From: a virus
Lineage: Duplodnaviria; Caudoviricetes
Reading direction: 5' to 3' (one strand)
IMG/VR virus record: IMGVR_UViG_3300020576_006124
Location: 64,001 to 128,000 of that record
DNA: 64,000 bases
Below the pieces are notes generated by a model, which saw only the letters and a list, made by a program, of their open reading frames with translations, was not told where the DNA came from and made no database searches. Below, piece by piece: positions 19,898-53,201 of this stretch (positions are counted from its first letter, which is position 1; each line of letters opens with the position of its first letter). Both the position numbers and the translations under genes were made by a program.

Positions 19898-20550
19898 TAG
19901 ATACCCACATTTCTAAAGTAACTGTGTCTTAGAACTTTCATTTCCCATTTACTACTAGGAATTTCTAGAGAGCTTTCTAGATTCCGCATTAAGGACTCCT
20001 CGGTAGAAACTTTATCCATAACGTAAAAGGCTTGGTCAACGTTTACTTCATTCTTTCTAAATTTATCGTCTATATAAGTCTTAACTACGGCTTTTAATTT
20101 AGCTGCTATAGTAAGAAAGAAATTCTTTTCCCAATCCTTAATTGCAATAAGGATTGCAACCCTTACCATATGCTTAAGTTCATCATCAGGCACATCAACT
20201 AATTGATTCTTATAGACTAAACACTGTGCTTTGTATTTACTTTTATCCTTTGTGTGGAGTTTTAGAAAATACATCTGCCCCTTAGACCTATAGTTATAAG
20301 ATCCCTTTCTGAACATACTAAAGAATCCCTCTATAGTCTTTTCAAACCTTAGAAGGATCTCCTCTACCGCCTTAGGGTCATTTTCTCTTGCTTTTCTGAG
20401 AATGTCCTCTAATTCGTTGGGGTCATAATTAGGTAAAACCTTTTTAGGTCCTAACTTTTTTACCATATCCTTTATTAGTACCATTACTATGTTCTGGTAG
20501 TATACTCGATGTACGTATACTAAACTGCTGAGAAACGAATACTTTATCAT
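19897..20550 (-). CDS. Divergent sigma-70-like factor (region 2 only; start probably near 20466)
   Basis: LRKARENDPKAVEEILLRFEKTI and DDELKHMVRVAILIAIKDW resemble sigma regions 2.1/2.2. No region 4 HTH seen. Confidence 0.55.
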   Translation of the reverse strand: MIKYSFLSSLVYVHRVYYQNIVMVLIKDMVKKLGPKKVLPNYDPNELEDILRKARENDPKAVEEILLRFEKTIEGFFSMFRKGSYNYRSKGQMYFLKLHTKDKSKYKAQCLVYKNQLVDVPDDELKHMVRVAILIAIKDWEKNFFLTIAAKLKAVVKTYIDDKFRKNEVNVDQAFYVMDKVSTEESLMRNLESSLEIPSSKWEMKVLRHSYFRNVGI

Positions 20551-21505
20551 TTAAAAGTTTTCTTATCTCAGGAATAACTAAGGAACCCCTTAGGAGTTCG
20601 TCCACACATTCCCCTACGTTTTTATAAATGTGTAGCTCGTCGAAGTCTTTCATCTCTACGATAAAATCGAAAATAGGTTCACTATCTCTTTCTCTTCTTC
20701 TCTTCCTACCTTGATTCATCTTACTAGCTGATTCATCAGTGAGAGTAACTTCACTTATAGACCCTATTAGATGGTTTAAAGGGGGGTTATTTATTAGATT
20801 TTCTAAGGAGTTGCCATGAGCAGTTGCTATTAGTTTAACTCCTCTTTGAGAGATAGTTATGGCAGCAAGGGCCTCTTCTTCTGTGGATATCTCATCAATA
20901 ATCATACACTCCGGGGTATGTGACTCCAAAGCGTAGATCATGATATTTTCTTGGGTTTTCCCTTTCGGTACTTCGAATCTACGAGAGAATCCTATAGAAG
21001 GGTGTGCCGGACTAGACTCCCCCCCGATCTCGCTGCTTTTATCTACAACTAGAGTTCTCTTAACCTCTCCTAGGTATCTAGCTATTTTTCTAAGGGTAGA
21101 AGTTTTACCCCTTCCAGGGCTGCCTAGAATAAGGACAGACCCCTTATCAACGAGGTCCTTAATCATCTCTAGAGCTCCTCCTATATCCCTTCCAACTCTA
21201 TAGGTAAGACCGACTACCTCACCATTTCGATCCCAAACACAAGAGACTCTGTGAAGGGTTTGAGGGATGCCAACTCTACCATCGGATCTGAACGCAGATA
21301 GATTCTTTAAGCACTCTTCAAGGTGCTCTTTAGTTATAACTGTGTCAACAAGTATAGGTCTGAATGAGGACACTCTGTACTCAAAGTATCTGCCTAAATC
21401 TATAATAATCTCATTCACCTTGTTATAGTCTTCTGGATCTATTAGCTTAACCAGATTTTCAGGTAGTGTGCTTAAAAGACGTTCGAACTCTACTTCATTC
21501 GACAT
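20444..21505 (-). CDS. Ycf45/SpoIIIAA-family AAA+ ATPase
   Basis: DLGR, R.GI..TLHRVS, GLTYRVGR, GSPGRGKT, D.S.EIGG, H.PE..IIDEI, RGV.LIATAHG, NP.L..L.G, VTL.DE. Confidence 0.9.
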   Translation of the reverse strand: MSNEVEFERLLSTLPENLVKLIDPEDYNKVNEIIIDLGRYFEYRVSSFRPILVDTVITKEHLEECLKNLSAFRSDGRVGIPQTLHRVSCVWDRNGEVVGLTYRVGRDIGGALEMIKDLVDKGSVLILGSPGRGKTSTLRKIARYLGEVKRTLVVDKSSEIGGESSPAHPSIGFSRRFEVPKGKTQENIMIYALESHTPECMIIDEISTEEEALAAITISQRGVKLIATAHGNSLENLINNPPLNHLIGSISEVTLTDESASKMNQGRKRRRERDSEPIFDFIVEMKDFDELHIYKNVGECVDELLRGSLVIPEIRKLLNDKVFVSQQFSIRTSSILPEHSNGTNKGYGKKVRT

Positions 21506-22309: not shown

Positions 22310-22965
22310 GGAATAACTTTAATGGATTTAAGAATTTTCTCAGGAGTTTCAAATAAGTCGTTATTGACTACTGGTATTTTCCTTTTTATATTTTTGTATA
22401 AATCATCAAGTATTTCTTCAAACTCAAGTTGAAGGCCCAAAGAGTCTACTCTTAAGACCATATCATCCTCAACTTTTGGAATTGAATTTATCTTATTCCA
22501 CATTTGGAAAGAGGCACCACCACAGTAATCTAGATCTGATGTAAAGGGGAGATCCGATGTACAATACACCCCAATAATAGGTACACTATCTATTCCTTTC
22601 CAATGTTGCTCTTCACAGATTTGAGAATAAAACTTTAGTGACCTTAAATAATTAGTTGTTACGACAATGGATGTCTTTGACTTCTCTTGTATTTTCTTAT
22701 GGTATTGAAGAAGAAAGCTTCTGTACAAGCTGACCCATTTATCGGGGTTAGATAGTAAAATATCCGGTCTATTTTTTATCAGCCTAAAAAACTCAAAGTC
22801 TAAATCATAAATCGAAAAATTAGGTAATCCAAAAAAAGGAACCCTTAGCTTTTTAGCCAAATAGGTTCCTAATATTTTTTTGCCACAGTTTATTGAACCA
22901 TAAAGTTCAATAATGGTTCCTTTATTCCTATCTAATTTTTGATCTCTTTTTAAGCTGACAATCAT
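22306..22965 (-). CDS. Thymidylate/NMP kinase-like protein (degenerate P-loop)
   Basis: KGTIIELYGSINCGKKI...LAKKL, similar to the Tmk N-terminus. Confidence 0.5.
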   Translation of the reverse strand: MIVSLKRDQKLDRNKGTIIELYGSINCGKKILGTYLAKKLRVPFFGLPNFSIYDLDFEFFRLIKNRPDILLSNPDKWVSLYRSFLLQYHKKIQEKSKTSIVVTTNYLRSLKFYSQICEEQHWKGIDSVPIIGVYCTSDLPFTSDLDYCGGASFQMWNKINSIPKVEDDMVLRVDSLGLQLEFEEILDDLYKNIKRKIPVVNNDLFETPEKILKSIKVIP

Positions 22966-23300
22966 TGATAGTTGAGAGAGCTAAACTCTGCTGATTTGTC
23001 CTTAATGTAGTCCTCATAATTTAACTTCTTTAATAAGTCGTCAGTAGATAAAGGGGAAAGGACAAGACTATTATCTTCTAATAAAAGTACTGATCTTATT
23101 TTTTTATTTGCTTCGTATAAAGAGATAACCCTAAATCCAGTTTCTTGTCCATTTTTTACTCTCCTTACAAGGCCAGAAGTCTTCCTTTGGCTGTAATCTA
23201 GGATCAATCTTATACTATCCACAGAAACATGGTTACCAAAACCTATATTTATAAATAAAGGAATAAGCCCTTTTTCTGACTTAGTAACTTCCAAGCTCAT
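22962..23300 (-). CDS. remA: RemA/DUF370 (YlzA) family regulator homologue
   Basis: FINIGFGNHV....I..I and K.RSVLL.ED..LVLS.L....L..KL match the DUF370 consensus LINIGFGN.V...RI.AI and RT.AVI..D...VILS. Confidence 0.85.
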   Translation of the reverse strand: MSLEVTKSEKGLIPLFINIGFGNHVSVDSIRLILDYSQRKTSGLVRRVKNGQETGFRVISLYEANKKIRSVLLLEDNSLVLSPLSTDDLLKKLNYEDYIKDKSAEFSSLNYQ

Positions 23301-23694: not shown

Positions 23695-24135
23695 TTAAAT
23701 TTCCTCGTCCTCTTTTTCGAAAGCATCTCTTACGACCTTGATATGCCTAGTTGAGACTTTCTTTAACTTCTCAAAGGTCTTATCAAAAAACTCAGAACTG
23801 AATTCGGCCTTAGCAGGCTCTAGACCAAGATTTATTCTGCTCCTCAGATCTGATAATACCATGCTCACAGTATTAATATAAATATGATTTAGACAATGTT
23901 CTAACAGGCTCTTCCCGTCTTCACTTTGAGTCAAGAAGAACACCTCAAAGATCTTTTTAAGTTCAGGTGTAATTTCATCCTCAATAAGACTAAGAATATT
24001 TTCGATATTCTTTTCTCCACCCTGTGACTCAAAGGACTCCACAGAAATCAGATCATTAGCCTTTCTACTAATTTCTTCTGAAGAAACCTCAGACAGAATG
24101 TCTTCTAACTTTTCATAAAAATCTCTACTTAACAT
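23695..24135 (-). CDS. Hypothetical acidic helical protein
   Basis: 146-aa ORF. Confidence 0.55.
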   Translation of the reverse strand: MLSRDFYEKLEDILSEVSSEEISRKANDLISVESFESQGGEKNIENILSLIEDEITPELKKIFEVFFLTQSEDGKSLLEHCLNHIYINTVSMVLSDLRSRINLGLEPAKAEFSSEFFDKTFEKLKKVSTRHIKVVRDAFEKEDEEI

Positions 24136-24722
24136 TTTTTTTTAACGTATCCTATAATCTCTGAGCTGTCAATAAAATACTCATTAACGTCTTCTAGACC
24201 TAAATGAGAATATTTAAGCTTAATAGACCTGAACGGAATGAACATAACAGTATCCCCCTCTTTTAAATCAAGAGAAATAAACTCATTTTGTTCATTCTTA
24301 AGGCCACTACCTACTCTCTTAATAGTTCCCCACCAGTACTCTGGTATCTCTGTCCGAGAATACCCAACCTTTTGAGTAAACTCAATAGGCTCAATAACTA
24401 CGTAATTACCATAAGGAACTATTTTACCATCTCTAACTACTGCGATGGCATCTAATACAGATGCAGCGTAAATTAGATCGTCCTCATCTGGTAAAGAAAA
24501 AGGTTTTACTCCATGATTAGCCATGTATACTATTTCTTCATTAAATATATCTGTGGTAATAAGGTTACCTGTAGAGCTATATATGCCCGGGCCGGAGCTT
24601 AGAACCTTATACCAATTAGTCTCTTTCTCAAAGGGGTTTTCTATGGGGGAAGACTGATCCTCCGCCTTTGAGACTTTATCTAAGATTAAGTAGTTTAGTC
24701 TTCCTTCTATTTTATAAGTCAT
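24129..24722 (-). CDS. groES: Co-chaperonin with two tandem GroES domains
   Basis: Domain 1: IEGRLNYLIL...KVLSSGPG....GNLITTDI....IVY...GVK...DAIAVV. Domain 2: IVPYGNYVVI...GTIKRVGSG......LDLKEGDTVMF...EIIGYV. Confidence 0.85.
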   Translation of the reverse strand: MTYKIEGRLNYLILDKVSKAEDQSSPIENPFEKETNWYKVLSSGPGIYSSTGNLITTDIFNEEIVYMANHGVKPFSLPDEDDLIYAASVLDAIAVVRDGKIVPYGNYVVIEPIEFTQKVGYSRTEIPEYWWGTIKRVGSGLKNEQNEFISLDLKEGDTVMFIPFRSIKLKYSHLGLEDVNEYFIDSSEIIGYVKKKC

Positions 24723-25005
24723 CTATAGTTTCGGGGCCTGATATTCCATTATCCTCTTCATTCTCTTCTATGATTACAAACTCTTTAGTATCTATGAATT
24801 CTGTAACCACAGATTGAATCTCCTGCCCTAAGTAGTCCGTCAGATTATCTCTAAGATCTTTAATAGAGAAAAGGGGTAAACAAGAGGTTAAAACGTTACT
24901 AATAAAGAATATACAATCGCTTGTAGGTGCAGACAAGCCTGGAACGAACTTGATATCCCCGTAAATCCCCTTAACGCTACCTGTGGAAACTTTAATTTCC
25001 CCCAT
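24712..25005 (-). CDS. Hypothetical protein
   Basis: 97-aa ORF. Confidence 0.5.
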   Translation of the reverse strand: MGEIKVSTGSVKGIYGDIKFVPGLSAPTSDCIFFISNVLTSCLPLFSIKDLRDNLTDYLGQEIQSVVTEFIDTKEFVIIEENEEDNGISGPETIDDL

Positions 25006-41135: not shown

Positions 41136-42692
41136 CTACTCTGCCTTTTTATCTATGATTATTGAGTTTGTTTGAGTATAATGTTTAGCTATATTGATTG
41201 CATTCACAACGGCAGCTTGAACTGTTCTTGCGGAATCAATTATACCCAACTCGAACATATCTTTTCCTTCTTCTTTAGTGGCCATGTTAAAGCCGCCTAC
41301 AAGAAGTTTATTCTGATAATCCTTCTCAGGCATTTCAGCATTTAAACTAATTTGGGATGAAGGGGCTAGTAAACATTTAAAAGCCTCTCTATACTTAGTG
41401 TCTAGACTATTCTTTTCGAAAATCTGTAGAAGGAATTTACCTCCACCCTCAACAACTCCGTATTTAATTCCATTCCTAGTCGCGTTGATAGCATCCTCAA
41501 ACCTATCTCTTTTCTCAGCAGCGTCGGAAGCATTCTCTCCTCTTAAAAAGATAGTAGCAGTTTTACCGGTAAGTTGTGCTATTCTTTTTTCAAACTTTTC
41601 TTTGTCTTCCTTAGAAAAGTTCTTAACCTCTTCTAGTAATTTAGCTGTGTGTTTAGCTATATTCTCCTCATTCTCCTCATTGGTCTGAATGAGGGTTTGG
41701 CCTCTAGCAATGCTCACTTTTCTAAAATCTCCTAGATCAGTGGGCTCAACCTTACTGAGAAGAACCCCCTTATTTTTATAGAACATTGTAGCCCCGCTTG
41801 CTGCGGCTAAGTCCTCAAGGAGTTGGAGTCTTCCCTCCCCAAAAGAGGGGGCTCTAATAACACAAATATTCAAGCTATTCTTGTTAATATTAGAAATTAG
41901 TGTTCCTAGGCACCTATCTGACATTTCATCGACAACAAGAAGCAGGGGAATCTCAGCCCCTATGTTGCTCTTAATCATTTTTTGAAGGAAGGGTACAAGT
42001 TCGTTTTCATTAGTTATCCCACTCTCCCAAATAAGAACTTTGGGATCCTCCCTTATCCAGAAACCTCCAGGGGCCATGTCAGGATGATACCACCCCTTGT
42101 CTAGGGTAATTCCTGAGCTGATCTTAACATGGGTGTTTTCGTCACTGACATAATCCAGGGTAATGATTCCTTCTGGCCCAATATTGTAAAATGCCTCTGC
42201 GACAGCATTACCAACCTCTTCTGAGTTACCCGAGATAGTAGCAAGGTTTCTTAAGGTCTTTAAATCAGAAGCAGAGATCTCTTTCCTAGAATTTTCTAGT
42301 GTGGATAAAACTACCCCCTGGACATATTCTAGTTTCTCTACAATTTCTCTGGAGTTATCCCCTGTCAACTCTCGGTCAACAAAATCACAAAAAGCTCTGG
42401 CTAGAACGCAGGCTCCGCTCGTTCCGTCTCCTGAAATGTTATTAGTACTTAGGGCCACCTGTAAGAAGAATTCTATAGCTGCTTGAATAAAAGGATCTTG
42501 TGATTTGACCTGTGAGGCAACTGTAACTCCATCTTTAGTAACATAAGGAACTCTTCCTTTCATAAAAAGGCAAGTCTTCCCATGAGGCCCCATAGTAGCA
42601 CCAACGGCACTAGCTACCAAATTGATGCCCTCCTTAAGCTTTACTTTTGCGTCAGAACCTAATAGAACTAGCGTCTTATTCTCTTCAATCAT
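41136..42692 (-). CDS. groEL: GroEL-like chaperonin (start probably 42692)
   Basis: TMGPHG, VTKDGVTVA, GDGT, APSFGE.R...LEDLA, RIAQL.G, RFEDAINATR, GVVEGGG, GIID. Confidence 0.96.
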   Translation of the reverse strand: MIEENKTLVLLGSDAKVKLKEGINLVASAVGATMGPHGKTCLFMKGRVPYVTKDGVTVASQVKSQDPFIQAAIEFFLQVALSTNNISGDGTSGACVLARAFCDFVDRELTGDNSREIVEKLEYVQGVVLSTLENSRKEISASDLKTLRNLATISGNSEEVGNAVAEAFYNIGPEGIITLDYVSDENTHVKISSGITLDKGWYHPDMAPGGFWIREDPKVLIWESGITNENELVPFLQKMIKSNIGAEIPLLLVVDEMSDRCLGTLISNINKNSLNICVIRAPSFGEGRLQLLEDLAAASGATMFYKNKGVLLSKVEPTDLGDFRKVSIARGQTLIQTNEENEENIAKHTAKLLEEVKNFSKEDKEKFEKRIAQLTGKTATIFLRGENASDAAEKRDRFEDAINATRNGIKYGVVEGGGKFLLQIFEKNSLDTKYREAFKCLLAPSSQISLNAEMPEKDYQNKLLVGGFNMATKEEGKDMFELGIIDSARTVQAAVVNAINIAKHYTQTNSIIIDKKAE

Positions 42693-43212
42693 AGTTTTTG
42701 TTATATGCAAGATATACACCCAAACAGTCGCTAAAGGTGTACTTTACTTGTTTTGATTTTACCTTATACTTCTCCAGTATTTGCTCAAAATCAGGGAAAG
42801 ATTCTAAAACTTTTTGAAAAACTTTTTCTTTTACTTCCTCCGTATTCTTTATTGTACGGGGTATCCCTAGAAGTTTCTTAATAGCTCTAGCTTCGACATA
42901 TTCCGGTTTTATTCCAGATGTGTACTCTAAAGAAACGCAGAGAGTCCTAACTGTAGCTAGGGCAAGTAAGGCTTTACTAGACTGAGATCCTTGTGGATTT
43001 TCAAATACTATCTTGTCTGGTTTTAAAGCTTTGATCAAGTTGGTCAATTTTCCCAAGATCTCCCTAGTTCTTAGTATTATAGACTCTGCTTCTGTTAGCT
43101 TAGAATTAGGAAGAGTCTGAATAACAGACATCTCTAAAATTTCCTTAGTTGTGGTTTCCACAACTACAACCCCAAAGAATCTTAAGGAGGGGTCTAAAAG
43201 CATTATTTTCAT
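42685..43212 (-). CDS. ruvC: RuvC-like Holliday junction resolvase
   Basis: LLDPSL..FGVVV, IVFE, IKK, K..V and SDCLG acidic catalytic pattern. Confidence 0.82.
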   Translation of the reverse strand: MKIMLLDPSLRFFGVVVVETTTKEILEMSVIQTLPNSKLTEAESIILRTREILGKLTNLIKALKPDKIVFENPQGSQSSKALLALATVRTLCVSLEYTSGIKPEYVEARAIKKLLGIPRTIKNTEEVKEKVFQKVLESFPDFEQILEKYKVKSKQVKYTFSDCLGVYLAYNKNYD

Positions 43213-44546
43213 GTATTGATATAAAGGTTATTAAAAGAGTATTCTCCTCTATTACCCCATTTAGCCCTTTCTCTGTTAAACACAATTTTTTCTACTTTGT
43301 GTACTGAGTCTGCTATTTGGAATATAGTTCTTTCTCCTACGTAGTTATCATTGACGGGTCTAATATGCCCTATTTCCGGAATCAGAGTAGGGTTATAAGA
43401 TTGGCAATATACTATTGATCCGTCTACTAGTGTAGTCGTATACTCATTCCCACTTTTAGTAAAGGATACAGGGCCTTCTGGTGTAAATAGTGTACCCCAT
43501 TCCCCGGTAAACCTGGAATAAGTTTTACCCCCTTTAATCTCAAGTTTTTCTACAAACATATTCCAGTCTGAGTATGTTTTTTCTTGAAAATAGTTATAGG
43601 AGTCTTGGTTAAAGTAGCCCCCTAAGCTTGTTTCCTGGTAGATGTTAGAATTTGTAATTTCTCCCAGAACATACAAAAGATAGTTGCCCTGGTTTAGAAT
43701 TTGAGCTTTGGGTAACAGTAAAGCCCTTTCTTTGTTATAGCTTAAAGCCCTTATATCTAAAACTCCTTGCTTAAAAAGGAACTTGTCTGGTTGAGAGTAG
43801 ATCTTTTTTATACTTGCGCTTGTACTGCTACCCCCATTTATTTTAATGTTCAGTGAAGTCAGGCTGTTGTACGTTTCTTTATATAAAGTTAAAACAACCA
43901 ATTCTTCGTCTGTTTTAACCCCTAAATACCTATCAGACCTGTTTTCTGATTTAACAAAAAATCTATTGGAAGAGGGGAGGCTGAAATAAACTATAGAATC
44001 CAAGTGATCAAAGCATGGATCTGTGCTAAAGGCAAATCCGTCTGTAGTTGTAGACAAAGACCTTGAGAATTCTACCCCTGAGATCAAAACACAGACCTCA
44101 GATTGATAATACATTGGAGTAGTACAAGATAATAACTCCTCTTCACTATTGGCTTTATCTATGGGAATCCACGTATTATCTGAGTACTGAATTTCCAGCT
44201 GGGTGACGTTTAAGTCTGTTTCTTTAATCCACAGGTACTCTTTAAATCCTCCTCTAAGTGTAAATTCAGACAGTGCTTTATCTTTAATTAAAGATAAGCA
44301 CCCAGCTAACTCACAAAGAATGCTCTCTTTCACACTTTGAGACGATATGGAGGGGAAAGATACTTTCCAGGCACTAGGGACTTTCCCTGCAGAAAAAGTA
44401 GGAACCGACCCTACTAGTGCTGGTGCAGTAGGTATCTCTTCAACTACATCATCCTCAACCAGAAAGTTGATAGATTCCCATCTGGGGAGCTTAAGCCCCA
44501 TTAAAGTTGCTTTCCTGATTAAATTGATGGGATACAGACTAGACAC
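43209..44546 (-). CDS. Putative baseplate protein
   Basis: Immediately downstream of baseplate J; C-terminal KWGN. Confidence 0.5.
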   Translation of the reverse strand: MSSLYPINLIRKATLMGLKLPRWESINFLVEDDVVEEIPTAPALVGSVPTFSAGKVPSAWKVSFPSISSQSVKESILCELAGCLSLIKDKALSEFTLRGGFKEYLWIKETDLNVTQLEIQYSDNTWIPIDKANSEEELLSCTTPMYYQSEVCVLISGVEFSRSLSTTTDGFAFSTDPCFDHLDSIVYFSLPSSNRFFVKSENRSDRYLGVKTDEELVVLTLYKETYNSLTSLNIKINGGSSTSASIKKIYSQPDKFLFKQGVLDIRALSYNKERALLLPKAQILNQGNYLLYVLGEITNSNIYQETSLGGYFNQDSYNYFQEKTYSDWNMFVEKLEIKGGKTYSRFTGEWGTLFTPEGPVSFTKSGNEYTTTLVDGSIVYCQSYNPTLIPEIGHIRPVNDNYVGERTIFQIADSVHKVEKIVFNRERAKWGNRGEYSFNNLYINT

Positions 44547-45640
44547 TAAGATATGGTTATTGAACTAAGCTCGAATTTTTCATCTACTTTACCAGCATAA
44601 AACCCGTTATTAGAAAGAATAGATCCCCCAATCTTCACAATAACAGCAGCATTTTTAATTTCCTGTGCTGAGTCGATTACAAACCGGGTAATCTGATTTG
44701 GGTAGAGGACAGCTGGGTTGGAAGAATCTAAAGATGAAATATAATTGTTAACGGCATTTGTGACTCTTTGAGATAGGTCCGAAGAAGTTCCAGAGCTAAG
44801 AGTAAGAAATATTTCTACATTAACCGGTATCCTTTCGGGGATTAGAAGTTTATAGTCAGTCCAAACTGGAACTGCCTCAGCAGCCATAGTAGATGCAAGA
44901 CTTAAAATAGTATTTTTATCTTGAAAAGCGGAAGGGAATAGTACGACATCTACTGTACCTGGGCCTCTCCTAGCCCTGTAGACACTTACATTCTTTACTC
45001 CAGGTATGGCCATAAACATACTTCTAAAGTTCTCTTCATTAAGGACGAATCTTCTTTGGAACTCTTGAAGAAGCCTAAATCTATATGAATCGTCCCCCTC
45101 CTCATCGCTACCGTTATCAATAGGGAGAGTGTTTGTAACAGAAACGGAAATGTTTACTGAGTTGTGGGAGTCTATGTCCCCTACTTTGGCTGAATAGTAA
45201 GAACCAGTGTCCGCAGCAATAACGTGTACAAAATCTGATTGAGCTACATCTAAGGATAGATTTTCTGTAGTAAAAAATGAAACACTAGGATTACCCGAGC
45301 TGTATACCCGAGTTCCTGCAATAATTGTCACGGTCCCCGAATCTAAATTGGTAAATTTGACAGCCCTACTCAAACCAACTGTAGTTGACTTGGTTGTCCT
45401 CTTCCTAGAAACACCTAAATAGTCACCCCAGCGATCTAGATAGGTACCAGTTGCCTGAAACAAATCAGAATTAGCCTCTATTTCTTGTAGAAAGGACCAT
45501 AGACCTTCAACCTCTTCCACAAAAATTGAGACTATTCTGCCCAAGGTACTATTAGTGGCAGACACATTCAAATCTGTATCAGAGTTAATTCTGCTGATTA
45601 TTCTTTCTATAGTGGTAGTTTTATCCGGCTTAGCAATCAT
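44546..45640 (-). CDS. Baseplate J / wedge protein
   Basis: ATGTYLDRWG..LGV.R, I.AGT.V, VTN......G.DEE.D.SYR.R, RGPGTVDV. Confidence 0.92.
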   Translation of the reverse strand: MIAKPDKTTTIERIISRINSDTDLNVSATNSTLGRIVSIFVEEVEGLWSFLQEIEANSDLFQATGTYLDRWGDYLGVSRKRTTKSTTVGLSRAVKFTNLDSGTVTIIAGTRVYSSGNPSVSFFTTENLSLDVAQSDFVHVIAADTGSYYSAKVGDIDSHNSVNISVSVTNTLPIDNGSDEEGDDSYRFRLLQEFQRRFVLNEENFRSMFMAIPGVKNVSVYRARRGPGTVDVVLFPSAFQDKNTILSLASTMAAEAVPVWTDYKLLIPERIPVNVEIFLTLSSGTSSDLSQRVTNAVNNYISSLDSSNPAVLYPNQITRFVIDSAQEIKNAAVIVKIGGSILSNNGFYAGKVDEKFELSSITIS

Positions 45641-52583: not shown

Positions 52584-53201
52584 TTATACTCCTGCTCGCT
52601 TCTGGAGGGCATCCATTCTATTCAACCACCCTTTAAGAAACTTGCCTTGTGAGGAACTCTGTTTAACTAGTGAGTAATAGTAATTTCTTCTTACCTCTAT
52701 TAGGGTTCTTGCAATGTTTGCCGTCGAGTTACTATATTGTGGAGATTGTTCCAAGGCTTTTTTGTAAAGCTGCCTTGCCTTACCATGCTGTACTGCTGTA
52801 TCAAAAAGTACTAGGTTTAATGGCTCAGGGGTGGAACCACAATCAAAAGCATCCCAATATTGCTCTTTGTAGATCTGGGAGGCCTCCTGTTTAGTAATAT
52901 CCCTAATATCTTTGTGGGGTAATCCCTTTCTCTTTAGCCACTTGTAATATTCTTCATGAGTTATTCCAAAATTAGTGGCCCCACCCCTATCCGCAGCATC
53001 GTTAGAAAAACCACCCTCCATTTCAAAAACGAAGTCAAGGCAAGCTTCAAAAGAAAAATCTTTATTCTTTCCTAATGTGTTATTGCCTGACGACATATTG
53101 ACCCTTCCTGGCAGACCTGTAGATGGGACTCCCGCTGAACTGGATTTATTAAGGATTCCAACCGAGTATAGTTGGCCATCTTTTTTGTTTAAAAAATCCA
53201 A
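52584..53201 (-). CDS. Glycoside hydrolase family 108 lysozyme
   Basis: EGGFSND..DRGGATNFGIT, IYK..YW, FDTAV.HG, FLKGWLNR. Confidence 0.93.
   Translation of the reverse strand: MDFLNKKDGQLYSVGILNKSSSAGVPSTGLPGRVNMSSGNNTLGKNKDFSFEACLDFVFEMEGGFSNDAADRGGATNFGITHEEYYKWLKRKGLPHKDIRDITKQEASQIYKEQYWDAFDCGSTPEPLNLVLFDTAVQHGKARQLYKKALEQSPQYSNSTANIARTLIEVRRNYYYSLVKQSSSQGKFLKGWLNRMDALQKRAGV

Follow-up and report, generated by a model that had tools for sequence, protein, structure and literature searches.

A tandem, Cpn20-like GroES gene in a large tailed phage that also encodes a GroEL

Bacterial GroES is a single-domain protein that forms heptamers, the rotation between neighbouring domains being about 51 degrees for a seven-fold ring, as against 45 or 60 degrees for rings of other symmetry. 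Its mobile loop, with a glycine and three small hydrophobic residues of the I-V-L type, binds helices H and I of GroEL. Some large phages encode chaperonins of the Cpn60 family themselves, such as the lid-independent EL gp146 (PDB 6tmt), OBP gp246 and AR9 gp228; the phage GroELs of EL and OBP work without a co-chaperonin.

Co-chaperonins of about 200 aa made of two head-to-tail Cpn10 domains are known from plastids as Cpn20, Cpn21 or Cpn23 (for example CPN20 and CPN23 of Chlamydomonas, and the Cpn20 of Arabidopsis and Plasmodium). This tandem Cpn10 architecture has been termed “unique” and “chloroplast-specific” (PMC5780408). It raises the question of how an even number of domains fits a seven-fold ring, to which several answers have been described: Cpn20 forms tetramers, a total of seven domains is reached in the combined lids of Chlamydomonas, and concatamers carrying six to eight GroES domains are functional lids of heptameric GroEL (PMC5780408). 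The native plastid lids are probably seven-domain hetero-oligomers, according to Tsai 2012 as cited in PMC5780408. GroES-fold lids are also encoded by phages, namely T4 gp31, RB49 CocO and the single-domain GroES of virioplankton (PMC5649160). Most virioplankton carrying a co-chaperonin lack GroEL, and tandem or fused forms are not mentioned in this survey by Marine et al. (PMC5649160). Likewise, no paper on a phage tandem GroES was found in a full-text literature search whose scope left out most subscription journals.

The gene described here comes from an uncultured phage and is carried by a 197,239-bp IMG/VR virus record (85% complete as estimated by CheckV), bases 64001-128000 of which form the 64,000-nucleotide window that was analysed. 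It is an ATG-to-TAA open reading frame of 197 aa, opposite a plus strand riddled with stops. The coordinates and length given in a first-pass annotation of the window proved exact, and the strand, absent from that annotation, is minus (Table 1). At its start the gene overlaps the end of a 97-aa ORF, and its stop and the ATG of a 146-aa ORF overlap within the sequence ATGTTAA; the double GroES is thus translationally coupled, as a member of a minus-strand operon. Neither of these flanking ORFs has a match in Pfam or PHROG. The candidate late-promoter motif CTCTATW is not enriched in the window (40 matches for 40.6 expected); one copy lies 140 nt upstream of the double-GroES gene, within the preceding ORF, from which no conclusion is drawn.

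Table 1. Position of the double-GroES gene, of its parts and of the other features discussed; positions refer to the window unless a locus or an accession is given.
Feature	Position	Strand	Basis or remark
Double GroES (Cpn20-like) co-chaperonin gene, 197 aa + stop	24129..24722	-	ORF; Pfam Cpn10; AF2 model; match to 7ekq_R/Q; 63 homologous clusters
N-terminal GroES domain, residues 1-99, sequence-divergent	24426..24722	-	hhalign; model vs solved GroES; Pfam in relatives; domain tree
C-terminal GroES domain, residues 100-197	24132..24425	-	Pfam Cpn10; six-frame scan; phmmer
N-domain mobile-loop segment, about residues 19-33, I-E-N for I-V-L	24624..24668	-	Low pLDDT; family column mapping
C-domain mobile-loop segment, about residues 114-129, V-G-Y for I-V-L	24336..24383	-	Low pLDDT; alignment; tripeptide table
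Upstream 97-aa ORF, end overlaps the double-GroES start	24712..25005	-	ORF list
Downstream 146-aa ORF, ATG overlaps the double-GroES stop	23695..24135	-	ORF list
Phage GroEL (Cpn60), 527 aa from GTG start	41136..42719	-	PF00118; phrog_5725; PDB sequence matches; conserved residues
RuvC-like resolvase fragment	42685..43212	-	
SpoIIIAA/Ycf45-like ATPase	20444..21505	-	PF19568, E 2.4e-11
RemA-like protein	22962..23300	-	PF04025, E 2.7e-10
Baseplate wedge subunit	44546..45640	-	phrog_6, E 1.9e-39
Endolysin-domain protein	52584..53201	-	
GroEL of related phage G001, 866 aa	L004:1459-4059	-	
GroEL of related phage G003, 866 aa	L012:1474-4074	-	
Cellulophaga phage phi18:3 gp096 (GroES)	L029:41458-42060	+	NC_021794
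Cellulophaga phage phi18:3 gp080 (GroES)	L029:31108-31362	+	NC_021794

The C half of the protein is readily recognized: residues 123-189 match the Pfam Cpn10 family (PF00166) with 33.3 bits for a cut-off of 21.1 (E 4.9e-8), a six-frame scan widens this match to model positions 3-90 of 93, and phmmer retrieves the Cpn10 of M. tuberculosis and T. thermophilus. The N half lies below Pfam detection and has no similarity to the C half by BLASTP, their homology being visible at the profile level only. When a 36-member family alignment was cut at residue 99, the two resulting profiles matched over 90 columns with a probability of 99.3% (hhalign, E 9.8e-21). In less divergent relatives, the N half alone passes the Pfam Cpn10 threshold, with 41.8 bits in the record G001, and two Cpn10 stretches are seen in each of the family members P0008 and P0015.

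The AF2 model computed from the 36-sequence alignment has a mean pLDDT of 90.7 and a pTM of 0.85; it superseded a mediocre first model from three sequences (pLDDT 67.8). Its residues 2-98 align with solved GroES chains with Z scores of 10.6-11.5 in VIA-align (94/96 residues at an rmsd of 2.6 for 4v4o_O, for example), and the whole chain aligns with the Cpn20 chain 7ekq_R with a Z score of 13.9 over 177 residues. The top two PDB matches in Foldseek are 7ekq_R and 7ekq_Q (TM 0.70, rmsd 3.9-4.3, about 208 columns), named Cpn20 and Chaperonin 23 by their depositors, and both chains come from an assembled co-chaperonin ring. From the matches of the N and C halves, the model and the structural alignments together, both halves are predicted GroES-fold domains, and in the model they are placed relative to each other as adjacent domains of an assembled co-chaperonin ring are. 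The first-pass proposal of two head-to-tail GroES domains with a Cpn20-like architecture, for which a structure or profile comparison had been suggested, is thus borne out, both domains and not just one being found.

Compared with plastid Cpn20, which it matches along its full length, the phage protein has no transit peptide, a sequence identity of just 13-15% and non-canonical mobile loops. Each of its domains shares with bacterial GroES (PF00166; 1aon_O, 4v4o_O, 1wnr) the beta-barrel, the mobile loop and a segment of the length of the roof hairpin; the differences lie in the two domains per chain, the N domain invisible to Pfam and the altered loop tripeptides. The single-domain gp31 is a poorer match to the model (Z 7.3-7.8).

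Four viral UniProt entries match the model over its whole length in BFVD, and one of them is a protein of a cultured phage, gp096 of Cellulophaga phage phi18:3 (S0A356, 200 aa). The BFVD model of gp096 aligns over 218 columns with a TM of 0.57, and here too Pfam Cpn10 matches the C half only. Its annotation as “co-chaperonin GroES” does not reflect a two-domain nature. gp096 was considered as a member of the double-GroES sequence family and set aside, with an hhalign probability of 37% and with halves that fall outside the N and C clades of the family. The complete genome of phi18:3 also encodes a single GroES, gp080, and no GroEL, so that a double lid does not require a phage GroEL. The earlier statement that fused dimers are typical of plastid Cpn20 is therefore right for the literature, and too narrow in view of this full-length structural match in a cultured phage.

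A HMMER search with a three-sequence profile, on representatives at 50% identity, retrieved at least 63 clusters of proteins of about 200 aa, almost all of them viral and metagenomic. Since nearly all of these clusters are 190-220 aa long and matched along their whole length, a chance ORF is excluded. The contigs carrying family members reach 235 kb in length. Nearest to the family in the ESM Atlas are clusters of “Cpn10 domain-containing” proteins of 190-236 aa, with 239, 77 and 62 members that are 97-100% viral, and the structural neighbours include the plant “20 kDa chaperonin, chloroplastic” (TM 0.78) and a viral cluster of 981 members. No full-length relative was found by tblastn among 50,697 GenBank phage records (queries P0001, P0015 and P0008), where Listeria phages and faecal phage contigs gave single-domain matches only. 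A single peptide pattern had no match in the genome and metagenome contig collections, which is weak evidence of absence, and viral contigs gave no related locus with the three-sequence alignment or with the family member P0012 alone. One metagenomic protein of 1045 aa (P0054) was dropped from the family, its seven profile stretches being weak and without a Cpn10 match in Pfam. These stretches always match the C-domain part of the family profile; P0054 may represent either a highly divergent chain of several GroES domains or a repeat protein whose fold is unrelated.

When the domains were separated and placed in a FastTree phylogeny, all 36 N domains formed one clade (SH-like support 0.93) and 32/36 C domains another one (0.69). 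This topology suggests that the family began with a single ancient duplication or fusion. A long branch outside the main C clade is formed by the C domains of P0001, P0005 and P0006. The two halves are sisters of each other in the metagenomic proteins P0052 (212 aa, support 0.99) and P0061 (203 aa, 0.81), which suggests that each arose from its own, more recent GroES duplication, separate from that of the main family. As for plastid Cpn20 and Cpn23, the family profile has no colinear N-to-N and C-to-C match to them: the two domains of Cpn23 are both aligned with the C half alone, and Cpn20/Cpn23 score lower than bacterial GroES. An origin independent of plastid Cpn20 is likely, not proven, the domain tree being one without a Cpn20 sequence. 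GroES duplication thus probably happened several times independently.

The only blocks of low confidence in the AF2 model are residues 21-30 (mean pLDDT 63), 111-120 (79) and 121-130 (65), which coincide with both mobile-loop segments and with the canonical loop positions. The canonical G-G-I-V-L corresponds, in the columns of the family alignment, to S-P-I-E-N in the N loop and to Q-K-V-G-Y in the C loop, the latter being about four residues shorter than in most relatives. One of the three tripeptide positions is thus hydrophobic in the N loop and two are in the C loop; the first position is retained in both and the third one in the C loop. Across the family, three hydrophobic residues are present in 20/36 N loops and 19/36 C loops, usually in the form G-[ILV]-x-[ILV]-P. 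Degraded loops of the kind seen here are particular to a small subclade of three members (P0001 and the closest metagenomic homologues, P0005 and P0006) that includes the double GroES of this phage, and within this subclade they are kept as I-x-N-P in the N loop and [VI]-[GK]-Y in the C loop. Given this conservation, the loops look retuned rather than decayed. In virioplankton, position 2 or 3 of the tripeptide is charged or polar in 23% of the GroES (PMC5649160). The first-pass description of loops lacking the GroEL-binding sequence was correct in that both tripeptides are degraded; “lacking” is too strong for loops with hydrophobic positions partly kept and motifs conserved in the subclade, and in view of the polar residues known from virioplankton.

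That the phage also encodes a GroEL, as had been noted, is confirmed by a full-length match to PF00118 (105.9 bits, E 2.7e-30) and by a match to phrog_5725 (E 1.6e-98). The Pfam match begins only at residue 35. An ATG nine codons after the GTG (M-I-E-E-N, in the 42692-42719 region) is an equally plausible start, and the RuvC-like resolvase fragment overlaps this start region. The best PDB sequence matches are cellular GroELs, with E values of about 1e-66 to 1e-64, as compared with just 4.3e-24 for EL gp146; this GroEL is thus far nearer to cellular GroEL than to the EL type, and it travels with a GroES-type gene. Alignment with E. coli GroEL shows that D52, D87, D398 and G414-416 are kept, and that the groove between helices H and I is largely hydrophobic, with L237, L259 and I263 retained. 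The apical binding face carries the changes Y203D, F204M and V264S, a combination absent from the GroELs of five relatives, which makes it somewhat more polar than theirs; the GGM tail is absent. Its closeness to cellular GroEL and its intact ATPase residues make the protein look like a lid-using, ATP-competent group I chaperonin.

Co-occurrence of the two genes was then considered, as the first-pass annotation had proposed. GroEL lies 17-25 kb upstream of the double GroES on the same strand in 6/6 IMG/VR records, namely the genome of the window and five relatives; none of the six showed a detectable single-domain Cpn10. These records belong to related phages with conserved synteny and are thus not independent observations; shared ancestry alone could explain the association. 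The completeness of five of them is 66-85% and that of the sixth 95%, which leaves room for a single-domain GroES outside the fragments. With this restriction, the co-occurrence is suggestive of a phage-owned pairing. In this phage, the lid gene and GroEL stand 17 kb apart and do not form an operon. Both are on the strand of the tail/baseplate module, which includes a baseplate wedge subunit in the same minus-strand block, and the lid gene is at the distal end of that block. The order of genes is syntenic among relatives at 22-40% identity, with large upstream proteins followed by the lid, a 136-aa protein, a RemA-like protein and a 219-aa protein. The same minus-strand block holds an endolysin-domain protein, and PHROG matches are lacking for most of the large ORFs from 26.8 to 64 kb. 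The RemA-like protein and a SpoIIIAA/Ycf45-like ATPase are encoded a short way downstream of the lid gene; the former is syntenic in 3/4 relatives compared, and the latter is matched in only 1/4 (L009).

The reading that we favour, with a probability of about 0.6, is that the double GroES is a phage-owned, Cpn20-like tandem lid for the phage GroEL. The co-chaperonin would descend from one ancient duplication or fusion within a lineage of large tailed phages, and its two beta-barrel domains would sit side by side like neighbouring subunits of a GroES ring. A dome would be closed by a small number of protomers, three or four being most likely and giving six to eight domains, and would dock through its flexible loops on the apical domains of the ATP-competent phage GroEL, late in infection. 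The lid would thereby cap the chamber in which phage proteins fold, in the manner of plastid Cpn20 on Cpn60. We infer that the loops bind the phage GroEL rather than that of the host. The idea of a phage-owned GroEL/lid pair, already put forward at first pass, gains support from the co-occurrence in all six records, from the lack of any single-domain Cpn10 detected in them and from a GroEL nearer to the cellular proteins than to EL gp146. The further proposal that the pair is a complete and orthogonal machine is an inference. The mismatch between an even number of domains and a seven-fold ring, raised at the same time, is a real problem, for which solutions are already known in the case of Cpn20, six- to eight-domain lids being functional on heptameric GroEL. 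An enlarged folding cage is pure speculation.

Besides the distance between the lid gene and GroEL and the kinship and incompleteness of the six records, two observations weigh against this phage-owned lid and open the way to other explanations. The hydrophobic tripeptides are degraded to I-E-N and V-G-Y, so that GroEL binding may be weak, restricted to one domain, or lost. Moreover, phi18:3, with its structurally similar GroES and no GroEL, shows that double lids can serve the GroEL of the host. The double GroES might accordingly be imagined as a hijacker of host GroEL in the manner of gp31, replacing host GroES and retuning the chamber for phage proteins, with the phage GroEL acting separately, alone or with host GroES. 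The frequent lack of GroEL in virioplankton with a co-chaperonin and the distance between the two genes in this phage are in line with such a role, as is phi18:3, which adds a single GroES to its full-length structural match; gp096 is, however, not demonstrably of the same sequence family, degenerate loops would fit the canonical groove of host GroEL poorly, and a phage GroEL accompanies the double GroES in all six records of the clade. We consider this explanation unlikely. A host contribution of another kind would be a mixed seven-domain lid of three double-GroES protomers and one host GroES (3x2+1), like Chlamydomonas Cpn20/Cpn23 with Cpn11. The probable composition of native plastid lids and the presence of Cpn11, Cpn20 and Cpn23 together in 7ekq provide precedents, and with no phage single-domain GroES found in the six records, only the host could supply the odd domain. 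The interface residues are nevertheless strongly diverged from those of bacterial GroES (13-24% identity), and a mixed lid appears quite unlikely.

The degraded loops can also be read in two further ways. The protein could have kept the GroES fold and left the chaperonin cycle, serving in the assembly or scaffolding of the tail module, or as the partner of another ring machine, to be compared with Cpn11/20/23 on ClpP in 7ekq. The loss of both canonical tripeptides in the subclade, the long branch of its C domains and the position of the gene at the end of the tail/baseplate block would agree with this. It is made very unlikely by loop motifs that are conserved rather than decaying within the subclade, by the barrel cores and inter-domain geometry conserved in the model, and by a GroEL retained in all relatives examined. 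The subclade may instead have rewritten both lid loops in parallel with the polar changes of the GroEL apical face, giving an insulated, orthogonal pair that neither uses host GroES/GroEL nor is poisoned by them; one loop per protomer might then be used, or the ring might be non-heptameric, with four protomers on an eight-membered ring, for example. Such an orthogonal pair is improbable.

Tandem GroES lids have been treated in the literature as a chloroplast speciality (PMC5780408). The debate on how an even-numbered lid works on a seven-fold ring still draws on engineered concatamers and on hetero-oligomers from plastids; the large phage family of natural double lids offers a compact, bacterially expressible two-gene system to study lid stoichiometry and loop usage. 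In this clade, the double GroES is apparently the sole lid gene and is paired with a phage GroEL, further evidence that folding machinery for late structural proteins is carried by large phages themselves. Database labels such as plain “GroES” or “hypothetical” hide the two-domain architecture.

A last observation concerns the GroEL genes of two of the related phages (G001 and G003), which encode proteins of 866 aa. In both, an insertion of about 330 aa, which the GroEL of the window does not have, splits the ATP-binding GDG|T motif and separates D87-G88 from T89. The insertion ends with H-N before the threonine and carries LAGLIDADG-like motifs, with sub-threshold matches to the Pfam families Hom_end_hint, LAGLIDADG_3 and Hom_end. 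It is probably an intein with a homing endonuclease.
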